Source of the DNA: Psammoneis japonica
Taxonomy: Eukaryota
Assembly: GCA_008632985.1 (NCBI GenBank)
Contig: QPGO01000099.1
Location: forward strand, 227,679 to 291,678
Direction: 5' to 3'
Length of the DNA: 64,000 bases
In this document: positions 14,400 to 61,600 of the stretch, piece by piece
Layout: every line of letters starts with the position of its first letter
Numbering within the stretch: the first letter of the stretch is position 1
Position numbers and translations under genes: made by a program
Notes under the pieces: generated by a model
What the model was told of the DNA's origin: nothing
Database searches by the model: none
Seen by the model: only the letters and a program-made list of their open reading frames with translations

Positions 14400-15600
14400 G
14401 ATGACTGCCTTATCGTTGACGAAGCAGAGCAAGGGGATGAATGCGATGCAAGATGACAACTTCTGTTGAAGGTCAACTCTCCAGGCTGTCTGCCACTAGA
14501 AGGAAAGTTGGTCCACATTTTCATTGTGAAGTGTTTGCTTGCTTGATGGCACAATTCATCGTCCCACTGGCTCTTTTCTGCCAGCCACGCCAGGGTTGTG
14601 TTGCTGACGTTTTCCATCTGCATGACACTGTTCGATGAACAATTGTCTGCCACCTGGGCAGGCTCCAACAGAGAAGGCATGCTGGCATTGTTGTGTGTCA
14701 TTTGTGTCAACATGGGAAAGGTTTCTTTGTTGCAAAGATTTGGTGTTCCAGCCCAATCCATAGATTCCTGCAAGAGGGGGACACACGTGCGTGCATTTCT
14801 TTCACATCAAACTTGCTTCCAGAGCTGCCATTTCCAGTTTGTGCTCCTGTGAAAAAGATTCTTTAACTCTCTTTTATCCTGACAGGCTTTCAGCCAGCTT
14901 CGGGGGCATCTTTGGAAGCCTTGAACCACGTCAGGTCGCCGGCACGTTTGGGGGTTTCCTGGTGCAATTTGTGCAAAAAAGAAAACATGCAGGATCTGTC
15001 CAGCATTTCCAAATGCCCCAATTGCTCTGATTGAAAGATCATTTTAGCACAAATGCTGTGCAACTTTCTCGGACAGTCTCATTTCCAAAAACGTTTCCCA
15101 GGCTGGTTGCCACATTTGTTCGCCCCATGGCCAAAGTGTCACAAAAGCAAGGACGAGCTTGCATGCACAATTTGACAGACAAACACAGCAGTCTTCTTTT
15201 GTTCTCTCTGCCAGAGACCAAGCATCTCCTTTCTGCTTGACAGAACACTGGGCGCCCACGATCATTGTCGCCTGGTCTGCGTCTTTCCAGGTTTGCAAAA
15301 CAGAGCAACGGCGCAAAACCCAAGCACTTCAGACATCATGGCAAAGGAGGCACCCCACACCAAAGTCACCTGAGCTCCCCCTGTCTTGCCCATGAAGGCA
15401 GCAAATGATGCGCCAGGTGTCCCGCCCAAATGACGAGCCATTGCAGGCAATCAAGCAAATGAGGTTCAAGGAAGAACACAGACGAACAAACCATCAAACA
15501 GCACCAACACATGCATGACCCACACAATTGTGCTCTTCTTCCAGCTCCAAGCAACAGTTGTGTTTGCTCCCATTGATGCAAGGTGGCCCCGGATGTGGCT
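14400..15600. other. TpA/CpG-depleted block 1 (hypermutated relic of unknown origin)
   Basis: By eye TA dinucleotides are nearly absent and TG/CA abundant. Six-frame ORFs are Cys/His/Trp-rich and Tyr-free. The block ends abruptly at TACCCTCTCTAGCTAG (15601). Confidence 0.8.
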
Positions 15601-15874
15601 TACCCTCTCTAGCTAGTTGGCCTTCAGAAATGGGCGCCGAATGACTGTGTGGTTGTGTCTCTGCCAGTCTTCCGTGGATCGTACAGCCAGCAGGCTCTTC
15701 GTGAAGATCGATCTATCGCTGCTCAGGCCATTTTTGTGTCACCTCAGCCACGTCATGACACGTCATGACACGTCACGAATCCTCAATCTTTTCTTCTCAT
15801 TTCCTGCTTGCCCACTTTTCACTTCCGACCTCATTCTTGGAACAACAAAATCGCAGAAAGACATTATTTGCACC

Positions 15875-23076: not shown

Positions 23077-26000
23077 CATTACATGTAAATACCGTATGTT
23101 AGCACTGTAGCCCATGTGTGATGTATAATGAATGTCCTAAAACCAACACTGTCTTCTTATTTGCGTGTAATGTATTCCGTACCTACGTCAATGAACTACG
23201 ATGACTATCCACATACGGTTTCCCCGGAAGCAGGGCCGGTCCCGTTTCTTAGCTTTCCCAGAGAGTTTTTTTGGGATTTTGGAGCGAATTGGATACTGGA
23301 GGCAACGTTGATAGGTGGTCAACAATCCACTTGAGACAGGTAAAACCGCAAGTAGCAAGCACGAACCATGGCGCTGTTTCAACGTAGGGCAAACGCTGCT
23401 TGCGAAGGCTCTAAAACAAAGGATATGAACCTCTTTGACGCTAAAGTCGAGCTGGAGTCAATTGGTTTCCAGACCGTCTGGTCAGAGAAGAACAGGTTGG
23501 TGGGCTCATATTCCGAGTTTCGATGGGAAGAATTGCTGGTCGTCGACACCCTCGTCTTTGTAGAGGAGATGTCGAACAGTTGAGTAGCGAGACTCTTCCA
23601 GAACTGGTTCACCGTAACACTACGTACCGCTGGTGGCCACCGGTCGGGTGTTGTCGCAGAACCGAGACACTCCTTGTCTATTATTCTCGGGAACCCATAA
23701 CAGCAGATACGGCTTGCTACATTGCTCAGTATAAGAAACGAAGCTTCACTAGTCTCACACTTATTGCTGCACAAGATTCAACCTTTACGTCCCACCGGCT
23801 CTCAAAAAAGCATGTCCCAACGTTTGGCTGCGCTATGTTACCTAGAATTCGCTATCTCTCTGGCAGGTTGACGGGCTTGCGAGAAGACGCTCCTTCGCAA
23901 CGAAAGCTGTTCATCCTCATAATGGTCAGCGTTTGTGCCGCATTGCTCGAGGATCCGAGCCTTGCTTTCAAGGCTTTTGTGTATTTGTTATTGTTCATGT
24001 TCCCTGCAAGTGCAATCTGTCCACATGTCCACTTCACTAGGTGCAACAGACGATTCCGGACCAACGATAGCATCAGCACTTTCGTTGTTTAGGAACGATG
24101 GCGAACAAATAGTAGCAGCAAGTCACTGGCTGGTTTAAGTTATTCTAATCTTTTATCAAGCACTGGCCATTTGTTCGAGAGCTTGCGAGTGGCATTTCCG
24201 ATGAACGCGACCACTCTCCATGAGAGTCTTGTCTTCTGTTTTTGACGTGATGAAAAATTGCCTGGGCGGCTGTCTCCAGCCTCGCAGATGGGCAACAAAC
24301 GATCCATTCACAGCAGCGCCAACACCCAAGATTGAAGTCACAAGGCATGCAGTGGAAGCAGCCTGCCAGCTGGAGTGCAAAACGGTTTGATCCATTTCAT
24401 CCTCCGTGGCTTCCTCCAGATCACAAAAATTGAATCCTTCAACTGGAGTTCCCAGAGTGTCTTTTTCATCCAGCTGCTTCTTTGCCTGTTTCTTCACAAA
24501 CTTGATCACATCTTCATCATTGCCTTCCTGAGCACAGACATCACCTGATGATTTTCCACTGTGTCTTTGCAATCCATCATTGGATCTGAGAGTCCACCAA
24601 AGTGACCTGCAAGATTGTCAACTGCCACAAGAGAATCCAGACATTTCACAAACTCGAGGCACTCACCTGAGCTTTTCTGGGTTGTGGGATGATGAATGGT
24701 GCAAACATCCAGCCCCACAATGTCTTGCTGATGAGACACAAGGCACAAGGCTCCTCCACCACAAGTTCTTGGCATTTTTCTTCACCTCACTTCAGAAATG
24801 GATCACAATCATGAAATCTTGCAACTTCATCATTGCTTGCATGAATTTCTAAAGAAAGGGAAATTGCAGCCAAGAGTGCAGAGCGTGTGGCTCACTGCAG
24901 TCAATCACAAAGAACAAAGCATGCACCATGATGACTCCAAAGCAAGTGGTTTGGACATGGACTTAAAACACACAGAGATGGAATGATGCAGAGTCCTGGA
25001 AGCCACAAGCCAGGGCAAGCAAAGACCAGTGCAACAATGTCATCTTTGTTGGTGGTTGATGAGAAAGATTGTTGATTCCCTGGAACAAAACATGTCAAGA
25101 GAAATGATGACATCGGTGGCTGAACACAGCTCATTTTGGAAGCTGGGTGTTTTTTTCTGAAGTGCATCCATCAAAGACCAACAACCACATCTGTGGTTGT
25201 TGCCACATCGTGGGCATGACCAACCAACAAAGAACAAGACTTCATCATGATGCTCACAACAGAGCTGCAGCTTGCATTTGGAAGATTCATCATGCCAGCA
25301 CAGGCTCTGAAATTTTGAAAAAATTCCACATCACCTGGCCCCATTGCAGCATTGTGCAGCTGTTGGCACATGTGGATGAAACCTGCCAGCAGGTCCCAGC
25401 CAAGAACACATGCCAGTTGTGCTTGAAGGCCAAAGAGCTCACAACTGTGCAAATTCCATGTGTTTCTGGTGCAGATGCAGAGCCCAATGCCAGGCTCTGC
25501 TGCTCTGCTCTCAATTTGCTCACAATTCTGACAGTTGGCTCAAAGAAGCACAACGCCAAAAGAAAGTGCAAGTGTTGCTTGTGTTTCCATTTGCAATGAC
25601 ACACTTGCTCTGCCATCTCCATGGGGGTGCACAGCAATGGACTCAACAAACAAAGCTCAGCAATGGCATCTCCCTCCACAGGCAAAGCCAAGGAGCCACA
25701 GTGCTGTCTTCTGGTCAGAACAAGTCTCTGCCATTGCCTGCAAACATGTGGACAGCCCACAGAAATCACAGATCTGGGCAGTTGCTTTTGAATGTTCTTG
25801 GAGAGAGGTGTCAAAGATTGCCTCATTTTTGACTTTGTTTGCTGCTCAGCCTGGCACCACAAGCTGGGTCCATCTGGCTGTGGCTGTTGACAAGAACCTC
25901 TCCTTGTGCAAGTGTGCAGGCAATGCATCATGGCTGAGAGATGGCCCACAATGCCATCTCCTCTGTGGCTGTTAACTTTGTGTCCCTTGGAGGTTAGAGT

Positions 26001-26499
26001 CAAAAACCTCTTTCTTCAACTGGGCTGAAGAGCATGTCAATCTTGCAATTTGTGATGCAAAACTGGTGCAGGATCTCTTTCATGCACTCTGCTGGTTTGG
26101 GAGGAGCCTGCTGGCACATGTCCAACAATCAGTCTCAAACACTGTCAGCTGCAAGAAAAGAGGTGGGGAACTCATGTGCTGCTTGGCATGTGGCTGCAAA
26201 ACCCAGTGCAATGAGCAGCTGCCATTCCTGCTGCACCCACCACAAGCCACATGTCAGTCAGTCATGATGTGGTGGATGGCAGAAAATTGTTGCTTGGAGA
26301 ACTTTTGTGCCATTGTGTGACTCCTGTTGCACCTGCTGCCACCCTCTGCAAACACTGCTGCCGTGCTCTGCTGCTCATGTCAAGATGGCATCATTTGGCA
26401 GAGGAGTGAGGGCCACCCAGTGCACCCAGCGGGCAATGTGGAAGGTCTGCAAGCCCTGAAAAGAAACAGAAACAACAGCTCTGCAGATGAGCTTTTCAC

Positions 26500-28350
26500 C
26501 TTGCTTCTGTGCAGAGCAAACCAAAATGCAGTGTTTTCAAAGCAAAAGAGAAGCTTTCCAGCCAGTGTTGGCAGCAAGAGCTCCAAGCATCAACTCCACA
26601 GAAGCCTCGCGTCAAAGCACGTGAAAGTGTGAGGGATGATTTTCAGTCACAGCTCTGTGACTGATGCAACCCTCTGCTTGCAACCCCAAAAAATGTTGGG
26701 AACTTTGCATCAGCATGACATCAGTTGGCTGGAAATGCATTTTGGCAAAAAAATGGGGGGTTTGTGATGTGGCATTGTGGCCCACAGCTGCCCAGGGCAG
26801 GAGAGGCCATTGGAAAGCTTGAAGGCAGCATGGCACCCAGCATTTTTGACAAAGCACATGAGATGGAAGGGGCTGAAAATTTGTTTGGTTGTGGTCTCTG
26901 TAATTTGTTGCTTCCAGCACACTGCTGGCTGATCTTGACGCAGCCACACCTTGTTGCTGTGCTGTGCTGAGCATCTGAAACAAGTTGCAGTGCATTGGGA
27001 CCCAAGCTGGACAAGTTTGGAGCCCCAACACTCACACCAAAATCAGATGCCCCCCACATCAAAATGTTTTTGGCACTTGGAGTCATGTGAATGAGCTGCT
27101 GGCGCTTGGAGTTTTGTGAATGAGCTGCTGTTTGGACCACCCGTTGAAGAACGGAGTCAGCAAGAGAAAGTGCTGATCACACAACATTGCTGCCCCCACA
27201 ACATTGTGCCTGTTGAACAGAGACAAAAACACCGGTGTTCTCCAAGGCACATCAGAGTGCAAACCACAGTGATGCAGAGCACCTTTCTCACAGCAATGTT
27301 TTTGTCTGTTGCAGTGCAAAATTCCATTGTTTCAAACCTTGACAGTTGTGCAGCTGGCAAACACATGTCAACTGTGACAGATGAACATTTCATGCTGTGG
27401 GACTCCCTGTTTTTCACCATGAAACAGGGACACGTTTTCCCTGTGAGAGTGCCCACCCTCCATCCCCACAAAACTTGCAAGTTAAAATCATTTGCATTGT
27501 GCCATGAACATTCCATTTTGTTGTTTGCATTTAAATCAAATGATGCTGACAGAGACAACACCCCAAAGTTTGCAGCAGCAGTTGCAGCTCACTTTCTTGG
27601 AGTGCCACTGCTGGCAGCCACTTTGTTCATTGCCAAAAAAGTGCAGAGAACATGTTGTGAGAGTGCAACACAGATGAGCCAACACTGCCAACAGGAACAG
27701 CAACATGGGCTCACCAGTGAATCCGGTGCCGCTGATTCTAGAGCAGGCCAGTTTGTGGCAGGAGCTGCTGTTCCATTGTTTGAATTGCCACTGCTCTGTT
27801 CCACCCCATTCATTGCCAAAAAGAGCAGAACATGTTGTGAGAGCACAACACAGATGATCCAACATGCTGCAACCCACAGGAACGGCAACATGGACTCACC
27901 AGTGCATCCAATGCCGCTGATTCTGGAGCTGGCAAGTTTGCAGCAGAAGTGCAGTTGCTCTGATGTCAACCACATGTGTTGATGAAAGGGACTTGCTTCT
28001 TCCATCAGCCACTCAAGCATCATTTCACAAGCACAGTGTGCTGAGCTGCACCATGTCTTTCCACTCCACCAGCACAGCAAAAGCACAAAGGCATTTCTTT
28101 TGAACCAGGCTGGAAAACAAGTGCTGCTTGGCAATGACATTTCAACATTCCACATTTGCTGCAGGAGAATGTTTGCAAAGCTGCAAATGGTTTTGACAAA
28201 AGCAAACAAGTCTGTGCTCAAATCTGTCATTGTGAGGAGCTGCAAAGTGCTGGCAGCAGGAGTTGGCTGCAGCAGCCAATCCTGTTTGGATTTTGGCCCT
28301 TGCACAGCAAAATGTTTCCTCCTGCCAACCAAGAACAGACACAAGCCTCA
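26500..28350 (+). pseudogene. Hypermutated SF2 DEAH helicase relic (divergent copy E)
   Basis: IFDKAHEMEGAENLFGCGLC (~26845) aligns with IFDEAHQMEG/AGSLFGYSIY in other copies; also GPKLDKFGAPT and motif V-like IVRSCKVLAAGV. Confidence 0.65.
27600..27940 (+). repeat. Tandem duplication with ~185-bp period
   Basis: TGCCACTGCT..TTCATTGCCAAAAA..AGAACATGTTGTGAGAG..ACAGATGA..CTCACCAGTG..GCCGCTGATTCT.GAGC occurs at ~27603 and again at ~27786. Confidence 0.8.
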
Positions 28351-28536
28351 CAGAAGAATGACGCAACCAACACAGACTGTGGTTGTGGGCCTCTCTTCAC
28401 TGCACCAGCAGCCACTGTCTGCTGGCTGGCCCAGAGCATGCATCAGCGCACGTGCGGCACACACTTCTGCTGTGAGCACTTTGTGCATCAAGCGGATGTC
28501 CAGAATCATCAATCGACATTGGCTGGCATCAGTGTG

Positions 28537-28746
28537 GGGGAAGTCTCCAGCCAGCTGCGGGCTGAAGAAGAATCTTGCATGGAAAGTGCACTGAAAGAGT
28601 CTGTTGATCTGTGTGTCAGGGGGGTTTGGTTGACACTGGACAGACTCGATGTCTTTTGCACACACACAAATTGTGCCAGCAAAACCCCCAAAAATGCACT
28701 GACGAGCAGACTTTTTTCAGCCAGCAGCTGGCTGGAGACTTCTCCC
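28537..28746. repeat. ~210-bp element bounded by ~40-bp inverted repeats (MITE-like)
   Basis: GGGGAAGTCTCCAGCCAGCTGCGGGCTGAAGAAGAATCT versus AGACTTTTTTCAGCCAGCAGCTGGCTGGAGACTTCTCCC. Confidence 0.65.
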
Positions 28747-29189
28747 AAGTGGGCCCTCTCTGCACACGACATCACAGCAGGTGGAAAAAGCTGCTGCTTT
28801 CTGATGCTTGCTCAACATGATGAGGGGCTCTTGTTTTCTTTTGGCGCTTCTGTCTGTGTTGCAGTTCTTTGCTTCTTTGCAATTTCACCCAATGTTGAGA
28901 GTGGTGCAACAATGTCCCAGAGAATGTTTTCAACTTGTGGATGTGTTGAATGACACAGTTGCTGAACATCTCATTGAACCATTTGTCCCAGGTGCTCAAC
29001 AAAGACATGCATCAAAGATCTGTGTGGACATGAATGTTCTCTCTCCCGCAAACAAACACCACAAAAATCAGGGCCATCACAGAACTGATGTGCATGAGAG
29101 GAGGACATCACCAATGAAGCATTCTGCCTTGTTGCTGAAACAAAACAATGGCTGTCAAGATTGGGGCAGTTGTCATGACAACATTGCTG

Positions 29190-31020
29190 ACTTGATCCCA
29201 CATCATTGTGAAAGAAACAATGCAAGAGCCAATGTCCAACTTCTTCTGGGTTGAAGCAAAACTTTGCTTGCTCTGGAGATGATTGCAAGATTGACTCAGG
29301 AAGGAGCAGGTCCCAATCAATCAAGAGTTCTGTCTGCAGTTTGTGTGACACTGAAACCAACTTTGGCTGAACTTCTTGCTGACACTCCGCACGCGTGCAT
29401 TCCTCAACTTTGACTGCTGTCTCTTCCCAACAGCAACTCCTTGTTGGCACACACAGTCTCCAAAACAAATCACAGTTTCAGGGCCCAAGCTTGACAAGTG
29501 TGGCACACAAACATTCTTGACAAAAAGTGGAGCAAGTGCCACTTGTTGCCTCATGGGCATTCAAAGCTTTGTCAATGAAGAGTTTTTTGGGCGTTCATTG
29601 AACATGGATGCCAGGAGAAAGCATGGAGCAAAACATTGCGGCTCCAATGACACTGTGTGTTTTGGATGGGAACAAACTCTGTGCCGCAATGGGCGACAAT
29701 GTCAACAATGAAGGGGGCACCTTTCCAACTTTTGCCATCCAGCATCTTTCCATGGAGCTTGTAAGCTGAGCACAAGCTTTTGCAGATTCAGCCAGAATTC
29801 TGTTGAAGGAGGCATTTCTGTGTTTGCTGTTTGTGGTGGTCAAAGATGTTTCCACAAAATGCAAACAGCATCTGCAAACACTGGCAACAGGTGTCAAAGG
29901 TGGGATGGGAGTTGGTGGTGATTGTGGATCCTGTCCAAAGCTCCGTTCTTGCACGTCAAATGATCGGGGACATCAGCCGGAAAGCATTTGGCAAGCTGCG
30001 TGGCTGCACTCTTGTTCATGTTCCTGTCAATGGGGACAATGGATTGTCAGAGGATGCTTGCAGATGCAAACTGTTTGCTCTTGTTTTTGAGGCCATGGTT
30101 GTCAGGATGTCTTGTTTGTGATTGAAGAAAGCAGCAGATCGGAAGGCCTTTGAAAGACACAGAGCTCCCTTTCTCATGTGCTTGAGTCATCCAGGCTTCC
30201 TGTTCCATGTCATTTCAAATGAAGAATGACACAATGAACCTTGTCATTTGACAATGCAAAGACAAGAGTGCCCGGGATTGCATGTGTGATGTGCTCTTGG
30301 TGTGTGCAGGCCACAAAAGTCACTGCAATGTCACCAAACATCACAAAGAGAGTGGGGGACACTTGGACATTGGCTGCAAACACAATGATCAGTGAAAAAA
30401 TGTGGGAGGCCAGGCATTTTTTGTGAACATGAGCTTGAGAAGGCTGGCGTCAAGTGGAACATTTGTGATGACAATTGGAGTCATGATCACAGCCTGCTCT
30501 TGGCACACTTGGTCAGGGAAGGCAATTGCGAGAATGTTCCTTTTTGGCATGCTGAGGGGATGACTTTGCTCCAGGAAAATGGTTGGAATGTCAATGACAA
30601 GATTGTGAGCTTGGCAAGCTTGACATTTTTAGAGAAGAAAGACTCAAGGTGGCTGGAGTGGAGTTGGACGTGTTTGAAGCCAATGGGAGACAATGTGTTT
30701 TTTCTTCTCAAACAATTCAAGAAACAGAGCAGCCATTGTAGGGTGCCAAAGGCTCACAAGGAGAATAGGATGAATGACATGACAGCTAAAAAACAAGGGA
30801 AGCTGGACACTTCTTGACAGAAACGACTGGAAAAGGCTGGAGTTGAGTGGGGGACATTTGCGCTGAACGATGGGAGACAATGTTTTCTCTTCTCAAACAA
30901 TTTGCGGCACATGAGGAAAGTTGTAAAGTGCCTTGCACTCATGTTGAAAATGGAAAGAAACTTGGAAGATGGTTGGAAAATCAAAAGAAAACATTGAAGG
31001 CAGGAAAGTTGGAGAGAACA
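29190..31020 (+). pseudogene. Hypermutated SF2 helicase with helicase-associated (HA) repeats (copy A)
   Basis: LFPTATP (motif III), DPVQSSVLARQMIG (motif VI) and HA repeats such as RWETMFSLLKQFAAHEESCKVPCTHVENGKKLGRWLENQK. Collinear with 54720-56890. Confidence 0.85.
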
Positions 31021-31684
31021 GCCACGCGAGTCGTCTGCTGGATCTTTGCGTTGTTTTCTCCGAAAGGCAGCATCTGCAATGCTGGAATCTGCTTGGTCTC
31101 ATTGGTGCTTCTGTTTTTTAAAGAATGAAAGGACTGACTGAAATTTATGAAGCGAGACAGTGTCCACTCCAGCTGAAGCAGAGCTTGAGAGGAGGTGGAA
31201 AACATTGTTCGACAGACCAGAGCACAGAGAGGGCAGTGGCCACAGAAAACACAGAACCAACTCCAAACTTCATCCTTGAACATTCAACTCACATGCATCG
31301 GCTTGGCTAGCCCAGCTGTGTAGCCTGACATGCGTGTTTTAGCCCTGAATGACAACATCTCCGATGCAGCAAACAGAGCAGGGCCTGTGGACAGTCCATG
31401 GCACTGTCAAGCAGTGCAAATCAGCCACGCGGTGGTGTGAACATGGGGTCCGTCCGTCTCTTCTGTTTGATTGGAATCACTCGACTGCATTGAGAAAACT
31501 CGTTGAGCTTCTTTTCGTTTCGGCGTAGTACAATTCTACGTGTTGGTAACAAATCTACGTAGAATCTACGCATGGATCGATCGGCCTCTTTTTAGGTGTG
31601 CGGTAAAACAGCGGCAGCGTGACCATTGCGTTGTTTGTTGTGTCATTCCACAGCAAAACAAAAGAACAGAACAACAACGATACC

Positions 31685-34838
<3,154 letters not shown>

Positions 34839-36690: not shown

Positions 36691-36889
36691 ACGTGTGCGA
36701 GTACGACAAGAGAGGGGTGATGTTTTGTAGTGCGGGGTTAGCTGTCGTGTAGTTCTTATTTGGAGTATTAGCGCAAGACGAATTTATCGAGATTTTTATT
36801 TTGATTGTATTGGATAGTAGGATCTAGATACTAGTACAGAGTGTAGGGCTATAATAACAAGGTCACCTTCGAGCGCCACGTAGTCGAAG

Positions 36890-39200
36890 TTATTCGGCTG
36901 CCTTTTTTTTTCTTATGACGAGTCGTACAGCACTTAAACCTTTGATTCCCACTGAGCGGCTTTTTTACATCCCAAACGACACCAACATCCACCAGTCATT
37001 CTTGCCAAGAAGTGCCCAGTCTCCCATTCTTTTTAGCTCACTGTTGCGTGCCTCTCCATCCTCTCTGTGACACGAGTAGGGAACATTGCAACGCTCCTCC
37101 CTTCAAAAATCGGAAGTGAATATAAAAACATGGACTCCCATTGACTTACCGGTATGCACGTATTCCACTCGACACCAAGCTCCTCAAGCCGTCCTTGCCG
37201 AGAAGTGGTCAGTTTCCCGTTTCCTTTTACTGATAGTTGCTGGTCCAGCCCACTTCCTAGATTCTTTCCGTCCTCGATGTGACTCCTTGAAACACCAATA
37301 GGAAGATAATTTCCCGTTGATCCTACAACACGTCCCACACAACGCCAGCATCCTCAAGGCGTTGTTCTCGGACGCTGTCGACTCTCCCATAGTCTTTAGT
37401 CGATCGTTGAGCATCTAGACAAGCGCCTACTTTCTTTCATCCTCTTTGTACGTCCTCGGGTTATTGCAATTGCTCTTCGCGGCGTTTGTGAACCAAGAGC
37501 AAATCGTACATGCGACCCCATTGATCCTCCAACATGTCCCACACGACTCAAGCCTTCTTGAGTCGCTCCAGCAGAGAAATATTGAGCCTTTCGTCTTTCG
37601 TACGGACCCGCTGAATCCTTGAAGGGATTATGATGGACATTACAATAACCTTGGCCAGTGTAAATCGAAAGCAAAACATACATGCGATCCAAAGAACTCT
37701 TGCCCAAGCAGTCCCGGATGGCGCGTTTCATTTTTTCATTCTGGAGGCATGAAGGACTCCAACACACGAGAAGGGAGCTCGGTGTCCAGCAAAGTCTCCC
37801 TATTCTCTCGCTTTTGTCAATTATAACCAAGAAACCCTTGCACAATGCAGCCAACTGTGGCCTCTAAAGCAAGCGTAAATATTCATATCCATCATTGCCC
37901 TCTGAAAAGTCATCGTCAGCAGCTACGCGGTACCAAACAGGAAGGTAACTGCGCTCTTTGCCAGCGGCTTCCCGGCTTATACACGTCCAATCATTTGACG
38001 TGTAAGAACAGAGCTTCGGAAGGGATCACCCGTTTGCCCCCAAACTCCCAATCCGCCTCGTCGACGCCGCTGTCGCCAGTACATTGCAACTGGCAGTGAA
38101 AGATTTCGATGCAAACCTCGCTTCTTGTAGAACACATTCCCGTTTTAATGTGGACAACATGTTGGGACTACCACACGCAGCAAACGTAGATATGTTGTCT
38201 TTCAACAACGTTCCAGCCGAGTTCTCAAGGCCTATTCTCGAGCATTGGTAGAGAGGAATGACTCGGCACGGGTCGCGTTTATGGCAAAAGGTAGCAAGAT
38301 GTCTTTGAAGGACTGGAGGAAATAACAGGTTGAAGGTGCGTGCCCATTGATTCGTTTCGATCCAAGACGCACAGTGTAATGGGGACTGTAACTTTTGCTT
38401 GCTCCAAACTACCTTGCAGCGTTCGTCGTTCGATGCACTGTCGAAATAAATCCATCGGAAAAGCTCCTGACGCCCAAAAGGCAATGAGCGGTCTCTGTTC
38501 GGCGGCAAGAGTGTTTGAGCACCGTACTTGTCAAGCTTGGAAGCCAAAAACGGCGATTTGTTTCGGAGACTGGGTATACAGACGAGGAGTTGGCGATAGG
38601 AAATCAATCAGAAGTAGTGAATCGTAGAGCCGTAGATACTGTATCCAAATAGCCTCCGTGCTCCTTCCATCTGGTGTGCTTCATCAAAATGCCAAAGGAA
38701 ATGCTGCCTTCAATTGCTTCAAAAGCCCCCCAACCCGTGGAAGCGAGTTGTAAGTGCAGCAAATCAAACGTAGCTTACCCTCATCAGACGAGAGAAATGC
38801 TTCAATCTCGTCAAATGCTATTGTGCAAGCCTTAGTATGGCTTGTCTGGCTGGCTACAATCAATCAAAGATGAGGAATGTCGGCAACCAGTCCAGAAGTC
38901 CAGGGCTTGATCCACCAAGATCAGTTTTGGTGTTATGCAAATTAAAGATTGAGCTCTTGATCAATTGGGACCTACTCCTTCTCGCTCGTGCTAACCACGA
39001 AAATGTTTCCAAGGTCTAGAACTTTTTACCCATCTCGTGAAAGCTTGGACATTTGCTCTGCAGAAGTGATTTTCTTCTTTCGAGAAACGAGTGATCAATC
39101 CAGATGGATTCGGATTGCCCCGTTTCCTTCACTTGACGTTCTCGTACCTCCTTCGCAATGCTGTATGATGGACTTTATTATTTCATAGTGACGAAAAACG
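36890..39200 (-). pseudogene. SF2 DEAH helicase + HA repeats, disrupted (copy B)
   Basis: Reverse strand TTTGATGAAGCACACCAGATGGAAGGA = FDEAHQMEG (~38662-38688), LVDQALD, QMIGRV and HA repeats RLEELGVEWN..QWESMF. Many stops and frameshifts. Confidence 0.85.
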
Positions 39201-44240: not shown

Positions 44241-45600
44241 CTGTGCTTTTGACGCCTTCTGGACATTGGGCCTGGAGTGCATCGTTCGTGTCCCTTGCGG
44301 AGAAACTCTCCAACATGCCGATTGTTTTAAAAGCTCAAACATCGATGAGAGTGGCAGGAGTGTGTTGGAACAGCAGGAATGATGGGCAATTCAGGAAAAC
44401 CCAGGCACATCACAAGAAAGAAGAAATTGTGAACACTGACGTGGAAGACTGGGTGACTGTTTTTGTTTCTGACTTATCATTGCTGATCTCTCTCAACTCT
44501 CAGTTCATCTCATTCTTTGGAGCAAATTGTTTGGCATGTGTGATTTTGTGAGTGGCATCACCAGACACCCGGCACCTGCTCCACCGTCAGTTTAAATTTT
44601 GTTTGGGGGGGGGCAGCACAAGCAGCCAAGGCAAGTGTGACAAGGACACAGGAAGTTTTGCAAGATTTTCTTTTGACGGCATTGACTCACACTGGTGGTT
44701 CAACAGCTCCATGCTGCTGTGTGTGAAAATTGACCCCCCACATTTTCAGCCAAATGCTCCCATGTTGACAGACAAAAAGAATTCAAACACAAGGTTGTTG
44801 ACACCTTTGAAGGTCGTGGGTGGAGGTCAACATCAGTTGCAAGAAGCCAGGTGCTGAAATTTAGTTTTCTCACACTTGCCCATGCAGCGAAGGTGCCTTT
44901 TGAAAAGCCAGCTCCATTTTTAAAATTTGTGCGCCATCAGCTGTGCCTGCCTGTTGCACACTTGTGCAAGACATTGGCAGCACAAAGGGCAGTTGAACAA
45001 CAATGCTCATCTCTTGGGAATTTCAGGCTCCAACAGGGGTCAAAGTCTGCCCAATTCTTCCAACAATTTTGAGTGGAGCGGGTCATGCAGGACTCAAATC
45101 TCGCGTGACTTGGGGCATGACAAAGGGAAATTGACCCTTTCTCAACACCAAAGTGGATGATGACATCACCACAACACAAAACCTTGGTCTCATGCTCTTC
45201 AAACCAATGTCTTGTGTGAGTGCAACAGGCGTGCATTGTTCCCAGCACATCAGGTCGTGTTGTTTGAGGGTGGAAGTGGCTTTTTGCAGAGCACCTTCAT
45301 TGCACGTAAAAGCACAAGGGATGAATTTTAGTGACAGCTCTGCATCTGATGCAACTGTCTGCTTGTGACCCCATGAGTTGTCGGGAACTTTGCATTTGCA
45401 ATGTGCGTTGTTGGGCACACATGTGTGTGTGTTGACATTGTTCCGTTTCAATCGCACGTCAACAGTGGGTTTGTGCAAAGGACAGATCAGTCACACAGAA
45501 TTGATCGGATGTCGGAAATTGCAAGTGCGATTGCATGACGATGTTGACATCTTGGGTGTCAATGGCAATCGCATCCGGACAACTGTTGTCACGAACATGT
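44240..45600. other. TpA/CpG-depleted block 3
   Basis: Same composition as blocks 1 and 2; begins immediately after the TA-rich tandem repeat. Confidence 0.8.
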
Positions 45601-45927
45601 CGAATAACCCACTGATTTCTATTGTTCGTAGGACCTGCGGGAAGTCACCCCTGAGCGAAAGTCTCTGAGGAAATGGCACCCCTGAGTTGTAATAAAAACA
45701 TTTATGTTTGAATAAATCATAACTTTTTATAAAAGGATATTCGGGCTTAGATACATCGCATGTGATGTCTCCACTGCTGGCTCAGAACCTTTTGCTTTTC
45801 AATTTTTTCAACGAAACGATCCAGTGTGATTGCGACGATGACACCTCTAGCTAGAGGGAGCGACATATTGCGACTTGCAACTGCATATCTATATCATCGT
45901 TTTGGAGTACTTTAGACGTTGGTTATC

Positions 45928-50809: not shown

Positions 50810-51479
50810 GATTAGACCGAGTTAGACTTCTACCGTATGATGCCTTGAGTTCTTCTGCTATTAGCAGACCGTGCAAAGAAGGTTGGTTGTGCGATCGATT
50901 GTTGGCGAAAGTTGTGGTGAAAACTTTTGTCAAACGACTACTTTTTCGAGTTTTTCGGAGGACTCTCTCTCTCTAGACCTAGCTAGACCTACTAGCGATT
51001 GTTTTCCGGGTGCCCCTCGGAAACAAGATTGACGAGTCACGCACGAGTGAGTCACGCACATTCGTGACTGAAACCAACAAGCACATACCGAACGAAAGTT
51101 GATTTGAATCGGATTTTATTGTATTGGTAATGATTGCGGACCACTTTGAAGTTCGTTGCGTGGTCTCTCGCTTTTCATCTCTCTGCCATTATGAATCACC
51201 CTACTCCAGCTCTATTCTCAGTTCTACTTTGGCTGCAAATGAGTGACTCTTTACCTTTTAACCGGCACGATTTGGCTTAGCCAAAGAGCAGAGAATATGT
51301 TTTCCACCGATCTTAGCTACCGGGAACTTGATGCATTCAAATGACACACTCAGGGGGGGAGCACCGGCACCCCGAAAGCCAACCGCTAGACTGCTTACTG
51401 CTTTTCTACTCTCAACATTCTACTGGTACGTCACTCATGAGTCAAGACGGCTACCACGATCGCGATGGTCGTCACGATG

Positions 51480-52880
51480 ATATAACAGAGTCCATCATAC
51501 AGCACTATGAAGGAGGACAGAGTATTTCAACTGGAGGAAACGGGGACAAGTCAAATCGAATTCCAGGAGAGATCTCTCGTTTCTCAAGAGAAGAAACTCA
51601 TTATTTCCGCAGACCAAACGTCGAGCTTCCGCCGGGATGAGGTGAAAAGTCGTATGCCTTGGAAAGCTTTTGCTGTTAGAACGAGAAGGAGTAGGTCCCA
51701 ACCAAGGAAGAGTTCAATCTATAATGTGCGTAACACTGAAACTAATCGTGGTGGATCAAGTCCCGGACTTCTTGAATGGTTCTGGACTGGTTGTTGACAT
51801 TCCTCCCTCGAGATTGATTGAAGCCAGCCAGACAAGCCGTAGCTTACACAGCATCATGGTGAGAATGAAGCATTGGTCTGGTTCCTGAGTTGCGCAGAGA
51901 TAACTTGTTTGTGATTGACGAGAGGATAGGGATGCCTTTGGCCGGCACCGAGTTTCCTTCTCGTGTGTTGGAGACCTTTCCGCTTCCAGAATCCATTTCA
52001 TTTGCAATGAAGAATGAAATAATGGAACGCACCGTCCAGGAATGCTCGGACAAGAAACTTTGGGATCGCATGTGAGATTTGCTTTCAGTTTACACAGGCC
52101 GAGAAGGTAATTGCAATGTTCCTTATGATGACGTCAAGGATTTCGTGAATGTAAATATGGTCGACAAATCAGCGGGTCCGTACGAAGGACGAAAGGCTCA
52201 ATATTTCTCGGCAGGAGCGACTCAAGGAGGCTGGAGTCGTGTGGGACATGTCGGAGGATCAATGGGGTCGCATGTACGATTTGCTCTTGGTCACAAACGC
52301 CTTGAAGAGCATTGCAATATCCCGAAGATGCACAAAGAAGAAGAAAGAAACTAGGCACTTGGCTGGATACTCAACAATCGGCTAAAAAGTATGGGAGACT
52401 GGACCGCGTCCGAGAAAAACGACTTGAGGATGCTGGCATTGTGTGGGGCGTGTTGTAGTATCAACGGGAAATTATCTTCCTATTGGTGTTTCAAGGAGTC
52501 GCATCGAGCACGGAAAGAATCTAGGAAGTGGGCTGGACCAGCAACTATCAGTAAAAGGAAACGGGAAAATGACCACTTCTCGGCAAGGACGGCTTGAGGA
52601 GCTTGGTGTCGAGTGGAATACGTGCATACCGGTAGGTCAATGGGGTTCCATGTTTTTGTATTCAATTCGATTTTTGAAGGGAGGAGCGTTGCAATGTTCC
52701 CTACTCGTGTCTCAGAGAGGATGGAGAGGTATTGGGAGTTGGTTGAAATCGCAACGGCGAGTAAAAAGAATGGGAGACTGGGCACTTCTCGGCAATAACG
52801 ACTGGTGGATATTAGTGTCGTTTGGGGGTCAAAGGTTTAAGTACTGTACGACTCGTCATCAGAAAATAGCAGCCGAATGA
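51480..52880 (+). pseudogene. Internally deleted helicase + HA repeats (copy C)
   Basis: NVELPPG*GEK (degenerate Walker A) and LKLIVVDQ, then a jump to HA repeats (GREGNCNVP, RLEELGVEWN). Confidence 0.8.
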
Positions 52881-53051
52881 CATTCAACTGCGTGGCGCTC
52901 GAAGTTGACCTTGTTATACACTCTGCATTACTAGCAGCTAGATCCTACTATCCAATATACAACCTCTTGCGCTAATACTCCAAATAAAACTATACGACAG
53001 CTAATCCCGCGCTACAAAGCCACACCCCTCTCGTGTCGTACTCGTACACGA

Positions 53052-54719: not shown

Positions 54720-56890
54720 TTAATCTAAGGAGGCAAGAGTATGTCAAGTGGAGGAAACGGGGAGAATTCAAATCGATTCCGGAAGGGATCACTCGTTTCT
54801 CGATAGAAGAAAATCATTTCCGCAGAGCTCACCGGGATGAGGTAAAATGTTGTAGGGGCCCTAGGTCTTGGAGACGCTTTCGTGGTTTGCACGAGAAGGA
54901 GTGGGTCCCCATTGATCAAGAGCTCATTCTCTAATTTGCATAACACCGAAACTGATCTTGGCGGATCAAGCCCTGGACTTCTGGACTGGTTGTGCTGACA
55001 TTCCTCATTGGAGATTAATTGTTTCCAGCCAGATAAGCCATACTGATAGGTTTGTACAACAGCATTATTTGACGAAATTGAAGCATTTCTCCCTTCTGAT
55101 GAGAGTAAGCTACGTTTTCACTTGCTGCACTTACAACTCGCTACCACGGGTGGAGAGGCTTTTGAAGCGATTCGTTTCCTTTTGCATTTTTTATGAAGCA
55201 CAGCAGATGGAAGGTGCGGGGAGTCTATTTGGATACAGTATCTACGGCTCTATCGATTCACTACTTCTGATTGATTTCCTATCGCTAACTCCTCGTCTGT
55301 ACACCCAGTCTCCGAAACAAATCGCCGTTTTTGGGTTCCAAGCTTGACAAGTACGGTGTGCAAACACTATTGCCGAAACGGGAAGTGGAGACCGCTCATT
55401 GCCTCTTGGGCGTTAGGAGCTATGTCGGTGAAGTGATATTTGGACTGTGCTTTGAACGACGGACGTTGCAAGATAGTGTGGAGTAAAACATTACAGTCCC
55501 CATTACGCCATGTGTTGTGGATCAAGGCGAGATCAGTGAGCATGTATCTACCGATTCCAGCCAGCTCTCCAAAGATACCTTGCTACCTTATGCAATCCAA
55601 GCGGCTTTCTAAGTTGAATGTTAGCCGTGCTGTATCGTTCCTCTCTACCACAGTTCGAGCACGGGCTTTTGCGGACTCGACTGGAACGGCAAATTGAAGG
55701 ACGGCATTTCTACCTTTGATATATGATATGTGGTGTTCCCAAAATGTCGGCAGTGAAACGGGAACAGGTACTACCCCAGAAGCAAAAGGTTTGCGTCGAA
55801 CTCAACCATTGCCAATTGCAAGGTATTGGCGGAAGGTGTCGACGAGGTGGATTGGTATTTGGTGACAATAGCTGATCCTGTCCGACGCTCGGTTCTGGCA
55901 CCACAAATGCTTGGACGTGTAAGCCGGAAAGGTCCTGGTGATGAACGAGGTTACGTTCTTGTTCCCGCAACCATTGCTGCTGATTCTGAGTTAGCAGAGG
56001 GTAAGGATAGCTTTGAAATATTTTTACTTGCTTTGGAGGCCATGGTTGGTCTAGATCCTGAGTTACGCGCAAGGATGTCTTGTTTGTGATTAGGTAAGAA
56101 GAGTGACAAGTCAATGCCTTTGATGGACACCGCGTTTCCTTCTCGTGTGTTGGCAATGGTAATGACCTCAACATGCACGAAGAAAATGTGATTAATTTTT
56201 GGGAATATGGTTGAGAAATCAGCGGGTCCGCAAGATAAGGACGGAAGGCTGTATACTTTTCGGCAGGAGCGACTCATGGAGGCTGGCGTCGTGTGGGACA
56301 TGTTAGAGGATCAATGGGGTCGCATATACGATTTGCTCTTGGTTTACGATCACCATGAAGAGCATTGCAATATCCCGACGACGCACAAAGAGGATGGAAT
56401 GAATCTAGCCATTTGGTTGGATACTCAACGATTGGCTGAGAAGAATGGGCGACGGGAAAACGTCCGAGAAAAACGACTTCAGGAAGCTTGTATTGTATGG
56501 GACGTGTTGGAGGATTTCAATTCAGCGAAGAAGAGGGAAATTGCGATGTTCCAAGGAGGCACAGCGAGGGTGGAAAGAACCTGGGACGTTGGTTGAGCAA
56601 GAAACGATCAGTAAAACAAAACTGAAAACTGACACTTGTCGACGAAAGTAACTGGGGGAGCTTTGTGCTGTGTGGGATGCATTCGCAGATCATTGGGAGG
56701 TTATTTTGCCTCTCCTTATTCAGTTTGGGTAACGCGTTGGACCTATTAATGCCGTCCCTTAGCAACACATTGAAGAAGGCGTGAAATCAGGAAAATGGTC
56801 GCGACAATCGAAGAAAAAGGAGGTGCTAAGTGGCAGTCACCTCTAGAGTGATTGGAAGAGGTTGGGGTTGCTTGGGTCATTTTCCGTAGG
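54720..56890 (+). pseudogene. SF2 helicase + HA repeats, disrupted (copy D)
   Basis: ADQALD, CTYNSL, IFYEAQQMEG, FLSLTPRLY, DPVRRSVLAPQMLGRVSRK..GYVLVP and HA repeat HEEHCNIPTTHKEDGMNLAIWLDTQR. Confidence 0.88.
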
Positions 56891-57029
56891 TGAGTGACTA
56901 CCTGTAGCATTTATGCTCAAGGCCATTACTTTATAACATAAGCAATCAAAAGGCATTGGCTGCGGTATTATGCACGTCTATTCTTTGAACACTATTATCT
57001 TTTAGCCATACAGATAACGATGGAGCAAG

Positions 57030-58151: not shown

Positions 58152-58369
58152 GGCTTGACAAAATAAGAGCTATGCGGCTAAGAATAGAGAGTAAGGAGAA
58201 AAGGTATGTCTTATGAGATGAAGTGATTCTGTTTTTGACATCGTGTCGATCTTCGCTCGCACCGCTTCTCGTTTCGCGTCCAATTTTTTTGGCGCGACCC
58301 GGCTGTTAGTTGGAGCGAAGGCCAGAACTGTAGGAACGGCTGACGGGCTGACGTATTCTGGCTACATTA

Positions 58370-61300
58370 CATGCAGCACATTCTCATTCAACCGGACATC
58401 ATCCTGTGAAAGAGGTGCAGCAGGCTGGGTGTCGGAGGGCTTAAAAATGAGGGGAATGCCCATCATGCACGCTCCACTGTCACAATGGTAAAAGCAAAAT
58501 TCCTGGCAATGCAACACCACTTTCTGAAAAACAAGAGCACTGTTCTTTGTGGTGTTGGAACACATGTGTTGGGAAAAGCAACACAGGGGCTGGGATGGCC
58601 GCCTGTCTCTGTTGCAGCAAATGTGAGCAATGCACATGACCCAGCAGTCTCTGTTTCTGACTCTTTTTCTTTTCTGGAGCAATGCTTTCCAGAGTGCAAT
58701 CTGACAGGCAAAGTGAGAAAGGTGTTTTGTTGTGCTGCATGCCAAAAAAAGCTGACATGCTCACTCAAGACTCGCCGCAGACATGGCGTGCTCCAGAGCT
58801 CCAGGTGATGTGCAGAGGCACATGATCCCCATTGCTGGCCCATTTTTGCATTTGGCACAATGAGCTCCTTCAATTTTGATTTTTTCCAACATCGAAGGCC
58901 AAGTGTGCATGAAACTTTTGTTTTTTATGTGCGCCCACCTTTCTTTTTTCGAAACTGTCAAAACAGAAGGAGTTTGTTGTGCTGAGCACAAATTTCACCA
59001 AGTGTTGTCACATTCTGCATGAAAAAATGCTCTCTGTGCACATGCATTTTTTCTTTTCTTTTTTTGGCTCATTTTTGTGGTCTGCATCAACTCAACTGTG
59101 ACGTCCGAACATGCCCTGTTTTTCCACAGACACCAAACACAACATTTTTTGGAGTGCACCACAAAATCAGGATGTCCTCTCATCTGTCTCATCCACCAGC
59201 CTCCTTTGTGCACATTTTGCTGATGCCTCCAATGCACCATGGTTAAGAAGAGGAAGCAAAAGTCAGCTGGCCATCACAACAAGTCAGGAGCTGGCAACAA
59301 CAAAAACAAAAAGTGTCATTGTGATGGGTTGTCCTTTCTCCTTTCCAAGAAAACCTGCCCTTTCCCAAGTCAATGCTGAAGGAGCAGCTGCCACTCCCTT
59401 CCACCTCACCTTTGACAATGCCTCTGTTGCTCCTTCCACATCTTTTGCAGACTGCTGGTGCTGGGACAATCTGACGATGTCCAGGACAGATGACAATCAT
59501 GCACAGGAGAAGAAAGAAAGTGAGCAAAGGAGAGATTGTTGGATCTTGACAATGCATCTGTGCCAGTCTGTCCAATGCAACTTGGGCATGGCTTTGACAA
59601 CAGAGGACAGTCCATGACTGGGGCAAATGCAGCCATCATTGCATGGAACAATGTGATGAAATGGCCCTGCGAAACAAAAAGCTTTGGGGTCTCGAGCATC
59701 AGGCAGGCATGGATGTTGGCGGAAAGCACTGCCAACTTGGCAGGAAGTTTGAGGGACCAAGCACCAACATCTGCAGGTGGCTTGCCTGAAGGCACCATGA
59801 CAGACACAGCAGATTTGACATGCAATGTGATGTCATCCACAGGATCCATCCTGGCATCAAAATGGTGGGTGCATCTTCAACATGACAATTTTCATTCTTC
59901 CTGGCAGAGTCTTGGCAACAAGAGCTGCATCTTGAACCACAGATGCAACAGACACATCAGAACCTCCATGAGGAAGATTGCTCTTCAAGAATGCATTGTT
60001 CATGACTTGCTCGCACTGCTTTGGACCAGGAAACAAGCAGCTGAGAGGCCTTGGCAAGACTTCAGGGGTGAACCCTGCAGCAGGGTTTCTTGTCTGGTTG
60101 ATTTGCTTGTTGACAAAAGCACTTCTGTCACTTTCAGAGAAACTGGCAGTTGGATCCAGTGAAACCAATGCTCCTCAAATCAAGAATTTGGAAGGCTCAA
60201 CAGTTTGCAACCAGATGTGCTCAAACCATTGCCATTTCTTTTGGCACGGTTTTGCAGTCAGGCAGTGCTGGCCTGCTCCAGTTGTTGTGTGCTCCCACAG
60301 CATGTTGTGTGTGTCCCACATGCTGGCACACAAACTGAAGTTTTTGTGCTCAGTCTGAGCACTGCTGACAAATGGGGAAAAAAAGATGCTTCTTGCAAGG
60401 CTTGGCTGATGTCACATGAGATGGCAATGGGAGGGGGAAGGCAGCAGCAGCTGGGCACAGTCTGCTGGCCTGTTCAAGCTCCCAGGTGTCAAAAAAAGGG
60501 GGCATGATCTGTTGCTGGCCCATTTTTGCATTTGACGCAATGAACTCCTTCAATCTCAATTTTTCAAAATTGAAAGGTGAGTGCACACACACAACTTTTA
60601 TTTTTTTGTGTGCAATCACCTTTCCATTTTTGAAAGAATCAAAATTGAGCAGTTCATTGTGCCTGCAATGTTTGGCTGGCATCTCATGTGATGGATTGCG
60701 GATGACCTGGGGATCCACACAACAGGCCTGCTGCAATGCAGCACATGTGCACAGCTGACAATCTTCTCATGGGATGACAACATTTGCTCTTTTGAGCAGC
60801 AATGTTGGAAACCACAAGCCATGCACATTTGAGAGCAACACATTTTTTTGTTGATTTTTGATGTTGCTGCAACATTTGCACTGGACAGCCAATCTCTTGT
60901 TCCTCTGATTGTCTCAACAAAGCAACTGTGCAAAACTTGGGACAAACCAGTTTGTGACAGCTCTCCCAGCTGGGAGCTGCTTTCCTCTCTCTGGCAGCCC
61001 CAAAGCTGTGGAAAGAGTTTTTTTTTCATCAACCCTGCAAAGCCAAGAAGTCTCATCTGACCTTCTCTCTGACACCACACCTCTGGCCCAGAGCAGCTTC
61101 TTGGCACAGAGGCCATCTGCTGTGCACACCCCAAAGGGTGTGTTGTTCATCATCCCAGAAATGCACCCTTCTCTGAAGATGCAATGACGCTGCTGTTGGC
61201 TGCTGCCATCCACTTGCAGTGGCTGCATTGTGGGGCCAATGTGCCAGCCATCACCCGCTCAAGCCTGAGTTTGGTGGCAATCCCTTGGGCCACTGGTTTC

Positions 61301-61600
61301 TCAATTTAGCTGTCTCCTTGGTTTTCATTGTTGTCTCACTGTGCTCTTCAGCACAGTCAATGTCCAATTTGTCCTTCATTTGGGGTGCAATGAGACAAAA
61401 CTTCATCAACTGCGTGTTTGACAACCTCTTCTTGTGGACATGTGAACAAGAGCTTTCACAGGTGCAACAGGTGCCTCTAATGGATTAAAATGCCATTCAG
61501 CCATTCGAAACTCAAGGAGTTGAACAGGTTGATTTATCTCCTTTTTCGCAGATCTTGAGTTTTGAATGCGACCAGTGAGGTCGGATGATTGCCGGACGTG
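58370..61600. other. TpA/CpG-depleted block 4 with an internal ~120-bp diverged direct repeat
   Basis: TA nearly absent. TTGCTGGCCCATTTTTGCATTTG..CAATGA.CTCCTTCAAT.. occurs at ~58832 and ~60512. Confidence 0.85.

Follow-up and report, generated by a model that had tools for sequence, protein, structure and literature searches.

Islands depleted of TpA and CpG

The stretch of DNA analysed here, 64,000 bp of contig QPGO01000099.1 (hereafter the window), contains protein-coding genes and, between their open reading frames (ORFs), four islands in which the dinucleotides TpA and CpG (TA and CG in counts) have been almost erased and TpG and CpA are abundant (Table 1). The islands lie at approximately 14.4-15.6, 24.15-31.5, 44.3-45.6 and 58.4-61.6 kb and make up 19% of the window. 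All of them sit between ORFs; for example, one ORF ends at 24092, ahead of the TA edge at 24154, and the edge at 15601 precedes an ORF start at 15617. An earlier note on this DNA had described a 7.3-kb block and three others nearly devoid of TA and CG and rich in TG and CA, which both sliding windows and segmentation bear out.

Sliding 1-kb windows over 24.5-30.5 kb of the main island gave observed/expected (o/e) ratios of 0.00-0.04 for TA, 0.05-0.24 for CG and 1.7-2.1 for TG and CA, versus 0.4-0.8 (TA) and 0.8-1.3 (CG) in the windows that flank it. Across the four islands the ratios are 0.02-0.08 for TA, 0.12-0.37 for CG and 1.6-2.1 for TG/CA, with 0.58 for TA and 1.01 for CG in the flanks; the outcome that the earlier note had named as fatal to its claim, a similar TA level in blocks and flanks, was thus not obtained. 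A two-state segmentation on the identity of pyrimidine-purine steps called two segments in the first small island, the core of the main island (Table 1), 44346-45439 and 58448-61472, summing to 12,141 of the 64,000 bases. The core of the main island (6,978 bp) holds 16 TA, 62 CG, 789 TG and 804 CA, so that TA and CG account for 78 of its 1,671 pyrimidine-purine steps (4.7%), versus 40.2% in the 51,859 bases that remain when all segments are set aside (binomial log10 P = -251). Over 100 consecutive pyrimidine-purine steps, the lowest TA/CG share found outside the islands is 0.22, and the median inside them is 0.05. The longest run free of TA extends over 2,023 bp (27739-29762). For the main island as a whole, the TA ratio is 0.03 and those of CA and TG are 1.8-1.9, at a GC content of 0.475 versus 0.478 outside.

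The borders are sharp, resolving to within 100-200 bp, and the TA-defined limits of the main island are close to the 24150-31450 proposed in the earlier note, whose description of a sharply bounded, regional process thus holds. TA is more fully erased than CG: about 6% of the flank level remains for the former and 16% for the latter. At three of the eight island edges we found rims of about 200 bp that are free of TA but normal in CpG (24154-24354, 31326-31526 and 45405-45605). The first 200 bp inside the TA-free zone hold 10-12 CpG at these edges, where 11.5 would be normal and 1.8 is the deep-island level. At the other five, TA and CpG drop at the same place.

One consequence for coding is that 24100-31500 and 58300-61700, where TAA and TAG are lacking, have 29 and 17 frames, counting both strands, that run from stop to stop over 100 codons or more, and Tyr is absent from all ten island frames that were translated. 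Outside the islands, the region 20500-23000 has a GC content of 0.52-0.54, a TA ratio of 0.37-0.44 and TG/CA ratios of about 1.25-1.3, and carries two long ORFs (21527-22354 and 22336-23076) without Pfam matches. Its composition could reflect codon bias or a mild, old loss of TA.

Table 1. Islands, repeats and reference genes in the window
Feature	Position	Strand	Basis or remarks
Main TA/CG-erased island	24154..31526 (TA-defined); segmentation core 24320-31296	.	Composition
Small island	14447..15601 (segments 14447-14850, 14949-15584)	.	TA o/e 0.08, 0.03; CG o/e 0.26, 0.37
Small island with internal inverted repeat (44784-44978 / 45203-45398)	44328..45605	.	TA o/e 0.08; CG o/e 0.25
Second large island	58448..61600	.	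5 TA, 21 CG, 341 TG and 348 CA in 3,026 bp
Dispersed high-copy repeat in main island	27121..28071	.	Summed word depth 1,430-3,190 vs about 62 in the flank
Second high-copy repeat in main island	28389..29022	.	Depth 2,070-3,200; palindrome 28535-28747
Hypermutated paralogue (copy A) of the helicase-associated-domain (HA) gene family	29147..31125	+	Homology to copies B, C and D
Unmutated HA-family copy B, direction reference	51440..53000	+	Normal composition
Unmutated HA-family copy C	36950..39070	-	In young inverted duplication with 51.4-56.5 kb
Unmutated HA-family copy D, direction reference	54860..56900	+	HA domain 56192-56596, E 1.4e-9
CDC48/p97 gene flanking main island	32067..34838	+	Pfam; normal composition

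Reality of the island sequence

A contig of the public sequencing run X1 spans the left edge of the main island (23000-25263) without a single difference, and other contigs of this run match 25265-26747 with 6 differences, 26727-27338 with 3, 27911-28721 with 1 and 28862-29327 with 3. The island sequence is therefore not peculiar to one assembly. Word depth in run X1 is 62-72 over the island, which is the level of the flanks, and of the words sampled from 23000-32500 the run contains 82%; the listed matches to this stretch include no RNA run. Where further copies of the island repeats are concerned, run X1 reads TA or CG at sites where the copy in the window has CA or TG, so its chemistry does read such words in such DNA. 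The island sequence is real and the observation confirmed. It has to be considered that modified bases within the domains may have been miscalled and that the true sequence carries TA and CG, since methylated motifs are a known source of systematic errors in long reads. However, the X1 contigs reproduce the island at flank-level depth, with no difference over 23000-25263 and 1-6 per 0.5-1.5 kb elsewhere, the run is not blind to TA and CG, and copy A has many further differences from its paralogues, all of which makes such an artefact highly improbable.

Direction and independence of the changes

The direction of the changes can be read from a gene family with a helicase-associated (HA) domain, of which copy A lies in the main island and three unmutated copies, B, C and D, elsewhere in the window. 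Sites were polarised where at least two of B, C and D were present and all those present agreed. None of the 20 ancestral TA has been kept in copy A, 7 having become TG and 6 CA, and only 2 of the 35 ancestral CG remain (14 became CA and 8 TG), versus 42-69% for the remaining dinucleotides. When the same pipeline was applied to the unmutated B, C and D, TA was kept at 9/10, 9/10 and 8/19 sites and CG at 17/21, 15/16 and 16/25, respectively. Counted per site in copy A, A>G occurred at 16 of 40 TpA, versus 16/112 after A, 17/93 after C and 21/95 after G (54/300 for these three together), and C>T at 28 of 73 CpG, versus 12/94, 12/80 and 9/77 elsewhere (33/251 together, not raised).

Comparisons between repeat copies point the same way. 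Among the matches listed (40 of 264), the window differs from the majority of the other genomic copies at 27537, where these have TA, and at 27551, 27790, 27833 and 30176, where they have CG; the window reads CA or TG at all five. Within these matches, TG is the majority reading at 27467-8, against CA in the window, and at 27740, a site at which the window has kept TA. Double swaps between CA and TG number 38 in 986 aligned bp of seven mutated repeat pairs, versus 1 in 985 bp of six unmutated pairs, and the ratio of transitions to transversions is 200:79 in the former and 70:66 in the latter. Such a swap is expected when two copies of a repeat have inherited the same TA or CG and each was hit on a different strand, and the mutations thus arose in place, after the copies had separated. 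As for the strands, the TG:CA counts of the islands are 789:804, 341:348, 123:123 and 104:134. Runs tests on the islands detected no strand-coherent tracts, with z values from -1.7 to +1.6 (-1.6 for the main island) that do not differ from those of seven control stretches (-2.3 to +0.3); such tracts would be expected if an RNA or single-stranded DNA had been edited.

Pyrimidine-purine steps make up 0.2395 of the island dinucleotides and 0.2407 of those outside. With this purine/pyrimidine skeleton and the GC content both unchanged, only transitions at TA and CG are needed to account for the islands. Indeed, an in silico conversion of all TA and CG in the flanks to TG or CA yields TG and CA ratios of 1.93 and 1.95 (1.80 and 1.83 are observed in the islands), with r = 0.974 over the 16 dinucleotides. 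TpA and CpG have thus nearly all been converted in place to TpG and CpA by transitions, independently in each copy and equally on both strands. The earlier note had set codons of copy A (29448-29503) against those of copy D (55300-55356), correctly according to our alignment, and the two-sided process that it had read from them, A:T to G:C at TpA on both strands and G:C to A:T at CpG, is upheld by the paralogues, the swaps and the strand balance; polarised alignments without an excess of TA to TG/CA, the finding that would have spoken against it, were not obtained (0/20 TA kept).

Might the islands instead be foreign or selected sequence born without TA and CG, for instance from a donor that avoids such words? 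Local word avoidance does exist in phages. However, copy A is a paralogue of host genes, other copies carry TA or CG at the same sites, copies of one repeat differ by swaps between CA and TG, and the skeleton and GC content equal those of the host. An origin of this kind therefore appears extremely improbable.

Residual sites and recency

Thirty-two TA survive in the islands. Strand-symmetrised, the base 3' of their A is A in 36 of 64 cases, versus 14 expected (P = 2.5e-9), and C (6 cases) and T (7 cases) fall short of the 18.4 and 17.5 expected. TTAA makes up 9 of the 32, versus 3.6% of the TA outside; the survivors (such as that at 27739) are mostly TTAA, TTAG, TTAT and GTAA, and C never follows on the top strand. 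This skew may mean that the process attacks TAY readily and TAA poorly, or that the survivors are new TA that have arisen from TCA>TTA. In copy A, C>T after T is somewhat raised (26/92).

Of the 14 listed single-contig differences between the window and run X1 within the island, 9 are exchanges of CpG with TpG or CpA, in both directions, and the 1.15 kb of left flank has none. The CpG part of the process therefore looks recent. Among the strand-symmetrised neighbours of the 123 CG surviving in the islands, TCG/CGA account for 51 of 246, versus 31.8% outside, and GCG/CGC for 72 of 246, versus 21.1%, a mild context effect of CpG decay.

Contents of the islands and identity of the host

The main island is composite. 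Its parts at 24.15-26.5 and 28.07-28.39 kb are single-copy at 85% likeness, next to the two high-copy repeats and copy A. The first of these repeats carries a 183-bp tandem duplication (27567-27772 / 27750-27956). In copy A, the HA domain is still recognisable at 30847-31125 (Pfam PF03457, E 2.4e-12). Some sequences are common to several islands: a repeat links the first small island to the main one (14936-15051 versus 28705-28587), and a 95-nt repeat does so for the island at 44.3-45.6 kb (45302-45396 versus 26617-26711). The second large island has a 156-nt direct repeat (58828-58983 / 60508-60663) and palindromic stretches.

Searches for relatives returned little. For the 295-aa ORF of the high-copy repeat, none of 8,000 scored candidates is a relative at E <= 0.001, and two island ORFs have no relative in viral contigs. 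No terminal direct or inverted repeats above the level of shuffled controls were found at the island ends. There are no Rfam matches or tRNAs within the 64-kb window, and the tandem-repeat scan detected only one trivial tandem repeat. The islands are intergenic and consist of repeat remnants, a single defunct member of a host gene family and further sequence without a recognised source.

The genes of the window, mostly long uninterrupted frames, encode a mitochondrial carrier, PH-domain and FG-GAP proteins, CDC48, a pirin and an LRR protein. The closest named relative of CDC48 is a protein from a Bacillariaceae sp. metagenome-assembled genome (87%), other named stramenopiles being at 76-80%, and the HA-domain ORFs fall in Atlas clusters in which Bacillariophyta is the commonest phylum. 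From these relatives and clusters, we take the host genome to be most likely that of a diatom; it does not belong to Bigelowiella. The HA gene copies outside the islands are part of an inverted duplication (35382-39194 / 51469-56515) with normal TA and CG, whose arms match over 599 nt at 99%, 320 nt at 98% and 365 nt at 91%. It also contains a 318-aa ORF (53052-54008, minus strand) and its partner (35741-36460, plus strand), neither of which has a Pfam match.

As for other genomes, among 29 metagenome CDC48 loci of at least 4 kb (of 80 fetched), none has a 1-kb window with a TA ratio of at most 0.25 and a TG/CA ratio of at least 1.5. In one metagenome contig (L003), positions 1-600, located 3 kb upstream of a 90% identical CDC48 gene, contain 11 TA, 14 CG, 56 TG and 60 CA, that is, 25 TA or CG in 141 steps. 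Perhaps this contig ends at the border of a similar island of a related diatom, but minima of comparable depth are also seen within coding sequence at other loci, so we do not count it as evidence.

Mechanism

Hypermutation of TpA has been documented in the alga Bigelowiella natans (Mettrop et al., bioRxiv 10.64898/2026.01.13.699255, 2026). In mutation-accumulation lines, 231 of 302 nuclear substitutions fell in integrated giant-virus and virophage regions; 230 of these 231 were A>G or T>C, all at TpA, at a rate about 1000-fold above background and in only some of the lines. The genome of B. natans also has 124 clusters of windows poor in TpA and rich in CpA+TpG, in which reverse-transcriptase and DDE domains are enriched. 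An ADAT2-like adenine deaminase is the agent proposed by the authors, who also cite ADAT2 enzymes that act on A and C in DNA. As far as it is accessible, the preprint text neither contains the word CpG nor discusses extended context. The statement of the earlier note that no described pathway has this spectrum has thus been overtaken for the TpA half, reported in 2026. For diatoms, a full-text literature search returned no report of TpA loss. Diatom genomes do contain isolated, heavily CG-methylated transposon islands, and RID-related DNMT4 enzymes of unknown function are widespread among them, according to the parts of Hoguin et al. (PMC9998398) that we consulted.

We favour the explanation that two processes act in one chromatin domain, 5-methylcytosine (5mC) decay at CpG and hypermutation of the B. 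natans type at TpA, both in silent islands of a probable diatom, and we would put its probability at roughly 0.55. The CpG loss would be ordinary decay of 5mC in islands that are presumably heavily CG-methylated. The TpA loss would be a TpA-restricted A:T to G:C hypermutation, such as was measured in real time in the silent viral inserts of B. natans. Our preferred candidate is a DNA-acting adenine deaminase of the TadA/ADAT2 type, which might be recruited to silent chromatin. The outcome would be DNA without TAA and TAG stops, Tyr codons, TATA-like elements and methylatable CpG, that is, permanent inactivation. The natural target of TadA/ADAT2 enzymes is an A preceded by U (U33-A34 of the tRNA anticodon loop), and early TadA-derived DNA editors preferred TAC. 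This last preference would fit the reading of the surviving sites in which TAY is a better target than TAA.

Several points weigh against this explanation. In B. natans, 230 of the 231 changes were A:T to G:C, and CpG is not mentioned in the preprint text; it is we who infer that the TpA and CpG halves belong together. The erasure of TA 200 bp beyond that of CpG at three of the eight edges fits two processes, but it also fits a single one with unequal rates. The 92 island ORFs of at least 75 aa contain no transposon or viral domain recognised by Pfam, only the HA domain and sub-threshold noise, so that the islands are foreign DNA only putatively. The polarisation is based on a paralogue consensus rather than on a true outgroup, and on 20 TA and 35 CG sites only. 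Lastly, run X1 possibly comes from the same sample as the assembly and its library type is not on record, so that it is not a fully independent source.

One deaminase with a dual activity on A and C in DNA, as reported for the ADAT2 of amphioxus and trypanosomes, might be recruited to the islands and convert TpA and CpG alike. Both losses affect the same islands with nearly the same edges and both end in TG/CA, and enzymes of this kind are cited in the B. natans preprint (bioRxiv 10.64898/2026.01.13.699255). We nevertheless consider this rather unlikely, in view of the normal CpG content (10-12 per 200 bp) where TA is gone at three of the eight edges and of the fuller erasure of TA (about 6% versus 16% of flank level); moreover, the TpA changes of B. 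natans came with almost no C>T, and CpG decay in methylated DNA requires no special enzyme. Because TA is self-complementary, a process directed at thymine would leave a footprint identical to that of one directed at adenine. A TET/JBP-type dioxygenase might thus oxidise the thymine of TpA in silenced repeats to 5-hydroxymethyluracil (5hmU) or 5-formyluracil, which would lead to T>C by mispairing with G. Such mispairing is known for 5-formyluracil; 5hmU itself is weakly mutagenic, a point against this idea. A dinoflagellate TET/JBP enzyme does make 5hmU, which marks and silences transposons, and in C. cohnii the replacement preferentially affects the thymine of TA and TC (PMC11572971, as far as accessible). 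Nevertheless, an excess of TC>CC is absent here (1 of 35 polarised TC sites) and the literature consulted does not report 5hmU in diatoms, which leaves thymine oxidation unlikely.

The TpA changes might also be a by-product of repair. T:G mismatches from 5mC deamination would then trigger long-patch, error-prone resynthesis by a Pol eta-like polymerase, with mutation of nearby A:T pairs, and Pol eta-type repair with its WA hotspots had been among the candidates of the earlier note. The coincidence of the two losses would be explained, and the TA-free rims extend past the CpG-poor core at three of eight edges by about 200 bp, roughly the length of a repair patch. The test on AA goes the other way, however: AA and TT are not depleted (ratios of 1.24 and 1.29 in the islands versus 1.16 and 1.15 outside), and A>G is least frequent at ApA (16/112, versus 16/40 at TpA). 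As TA is saturated, even a tenfold lower rate at AA should show, and we regard this scenario as quite improbable. The earlier note had also called the system RIP-like, after the repeat-induced point mutation (RIP) of fungi. For RIP to be triggered, a duplication has to extend over a few hundred bp with an identity of roughly 80% or higher, and the process depends on an enzyme of the RID/DNMT4 type. Applied to the islands, such a system would detect duplicates through their homology, for instance ahead of meiosis, and mutate them, a scheme in line with the dispersed repeats at 20-50 times flank depth, with the presence of a copy of a multi-copy gene family and with the widespread RID-related DNMT4 of diatoms (PMC9998398). 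In the sense of repeat-induced, however, the term is not supported. Since duplicates of 599 nt at 99%, 320 nt at 98% and 365 nt at 91% identity in the window keep normal TA and CG, repetition alone is not the trigger. In addition, 24.15-26.5 and 28.07-28.39 kb are single-copy at a likeness of 85% (a level below which old copies may by now have drifted), the chemistry is opposite (CpA to TpA in RIP), and the target of hypermutation in B. natans is single-copy (bioRxiv 10.64898/2026.01.13.699255). A true RIP-like system is thus very unlikely.

Significance

Relative to B. natans, what is new here is the most likely diatom host, the near-complete saturation, the co-located erasure of CpG and the skewed context of the surviving sites, as well as the nature of the target, in which a host-family pseudogene is present and neither virus nor transposon is recognisable. 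It is tempting to speculate that diatoms and chlorarachniophytes, and possibly the whole SAR supergroup, share a chromatin-aimed DNA-editing defence that rewrites TpA and, together with methylation, CpG to TpG and CpA, a proposal that we make tentatively and hold to be doubtful for now. If it is true, silenced DNA would be permanently disarmed by removal of TAA/TAG stops, Tyr codons, TATA-like and AATAAA-like signals and methylation sites, and the surviving TA (TTAA 9/32) may show the extended preference of the enzyme, TAY over TAA.

Hypermutation of nuclear DNA from A:T to G:C opposes the usual mutation bias, and our literature search found a single preprint on it, in one alga. The finding of its saturated end-state in another lineage, one that is distant and dominates ecologically, speaks for an old or recurrent process and against an oddity confined to a single strain. 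It also offers a comparative handle on the enzyme, through deaminase or dioxygenase genes common to island-bearing genomes, and a process tied to CG-methylated islands would be open to genetic manipulation in model diatoms. From a practical viewpoint, a fifth of the window in which every frame is open for hundreds of codons misleads gene finders, with possible false genes, and repeat classifiers. A natural enzyme that acts on A, or T, at TA in double-stranded chromatin would be of interest for base editing.

Comparison with known systems

With fungal RIP, the islands share dense transitions in a dinucleotide context, on both strands of sharply bounded stretches, and the destruction of coding capacity. 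However, RIP converts CpA to TpA and renders DNA AT-rich (PMC2621366, as far as accessible), whereas the islands lose TpA and gain CpA and TpG at unchanged GC content (ratios of 0.03 for TA and 1.8-1.9 for CA/TG), and near-identical duplicates are spared; the opposite direction had been pointed out correctly in the earlier note. Hyper-editing by ADAR of double-stranded RNA derived from repeats resembles the TpA changes by its A>G substitutions with a 5' U preference, but it acts on RNA, needs reverse transcription and would mark one strand in runs. We rejected ADAR-type editing fixed by retrotransposition on the basis of the TG:CA count of 789:804, the runs test (z = -1.6) and the lack of a reverse-transcriptase domain in the 92 island ORFs. 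In phase 2 of somatic hypermutation, mutations at A:T arise through Pol eta secondarily to cytosine deamination, with TA as a hotspot; AA is equally a hotspot there, unlike in the islands, where it is untouched.

The CG-methylated islands of diatoms are a closer parallel for one half of our observations. 5mC decay in them has in common with the present case isolated islands in an otherwise normal genome, changes of CpG to TpG or CpA and polymorphic CpG sites. It leaves TpA and other contexts untouched, however, and the present islands are methylated only presumably. The CpG part fits, with 22 of 35 sites changed to CA or TG, but as TpA is also lost, CpG decay alone does not cover the finding.

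The closest system is the hypermutation of B. natans, from which the islands nevertheless depart in several respects. The host is a chlorarachniophyte (a rhizarian) in one case and most likely a diatom (a stramenopile) in the other. The TA ratio of a B. natans viral insert is 0.45, versus 0.03 here, a near-complete erasure. G:C>A:T changes, which are almost absent from B. natans (1/231), are evident at CpG in the islands (CG ratios of 0.12-0.37, 2/35 CG kept), a departure that is CpG-specific. In addition, no viral or transposon domain was found in the ORFs of the islands, and one of the targets is a copy of a host gene family. The likenesses are the conversion of TpA to TpG or CpA on both strands, the confinement to bounded regions, the independence from copy number and the TpA-poor, CpA+TpG-rich clusters. 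The thresholds used to define such clusters in B. natans are a Rho value of at most 0.43 for TpA and of at least 1.52 for CpA+TpG in at least three consecutive 1-kb windows. In our window, seven consecutive non-overlapping windows pass them in the main island (24001-31000, TA 0.00-0.15, TG/CA 1.57-2.09), as do three in the second large island (58501-61500, TA 0.00-0.06, TG/CA 1.76-1.94).

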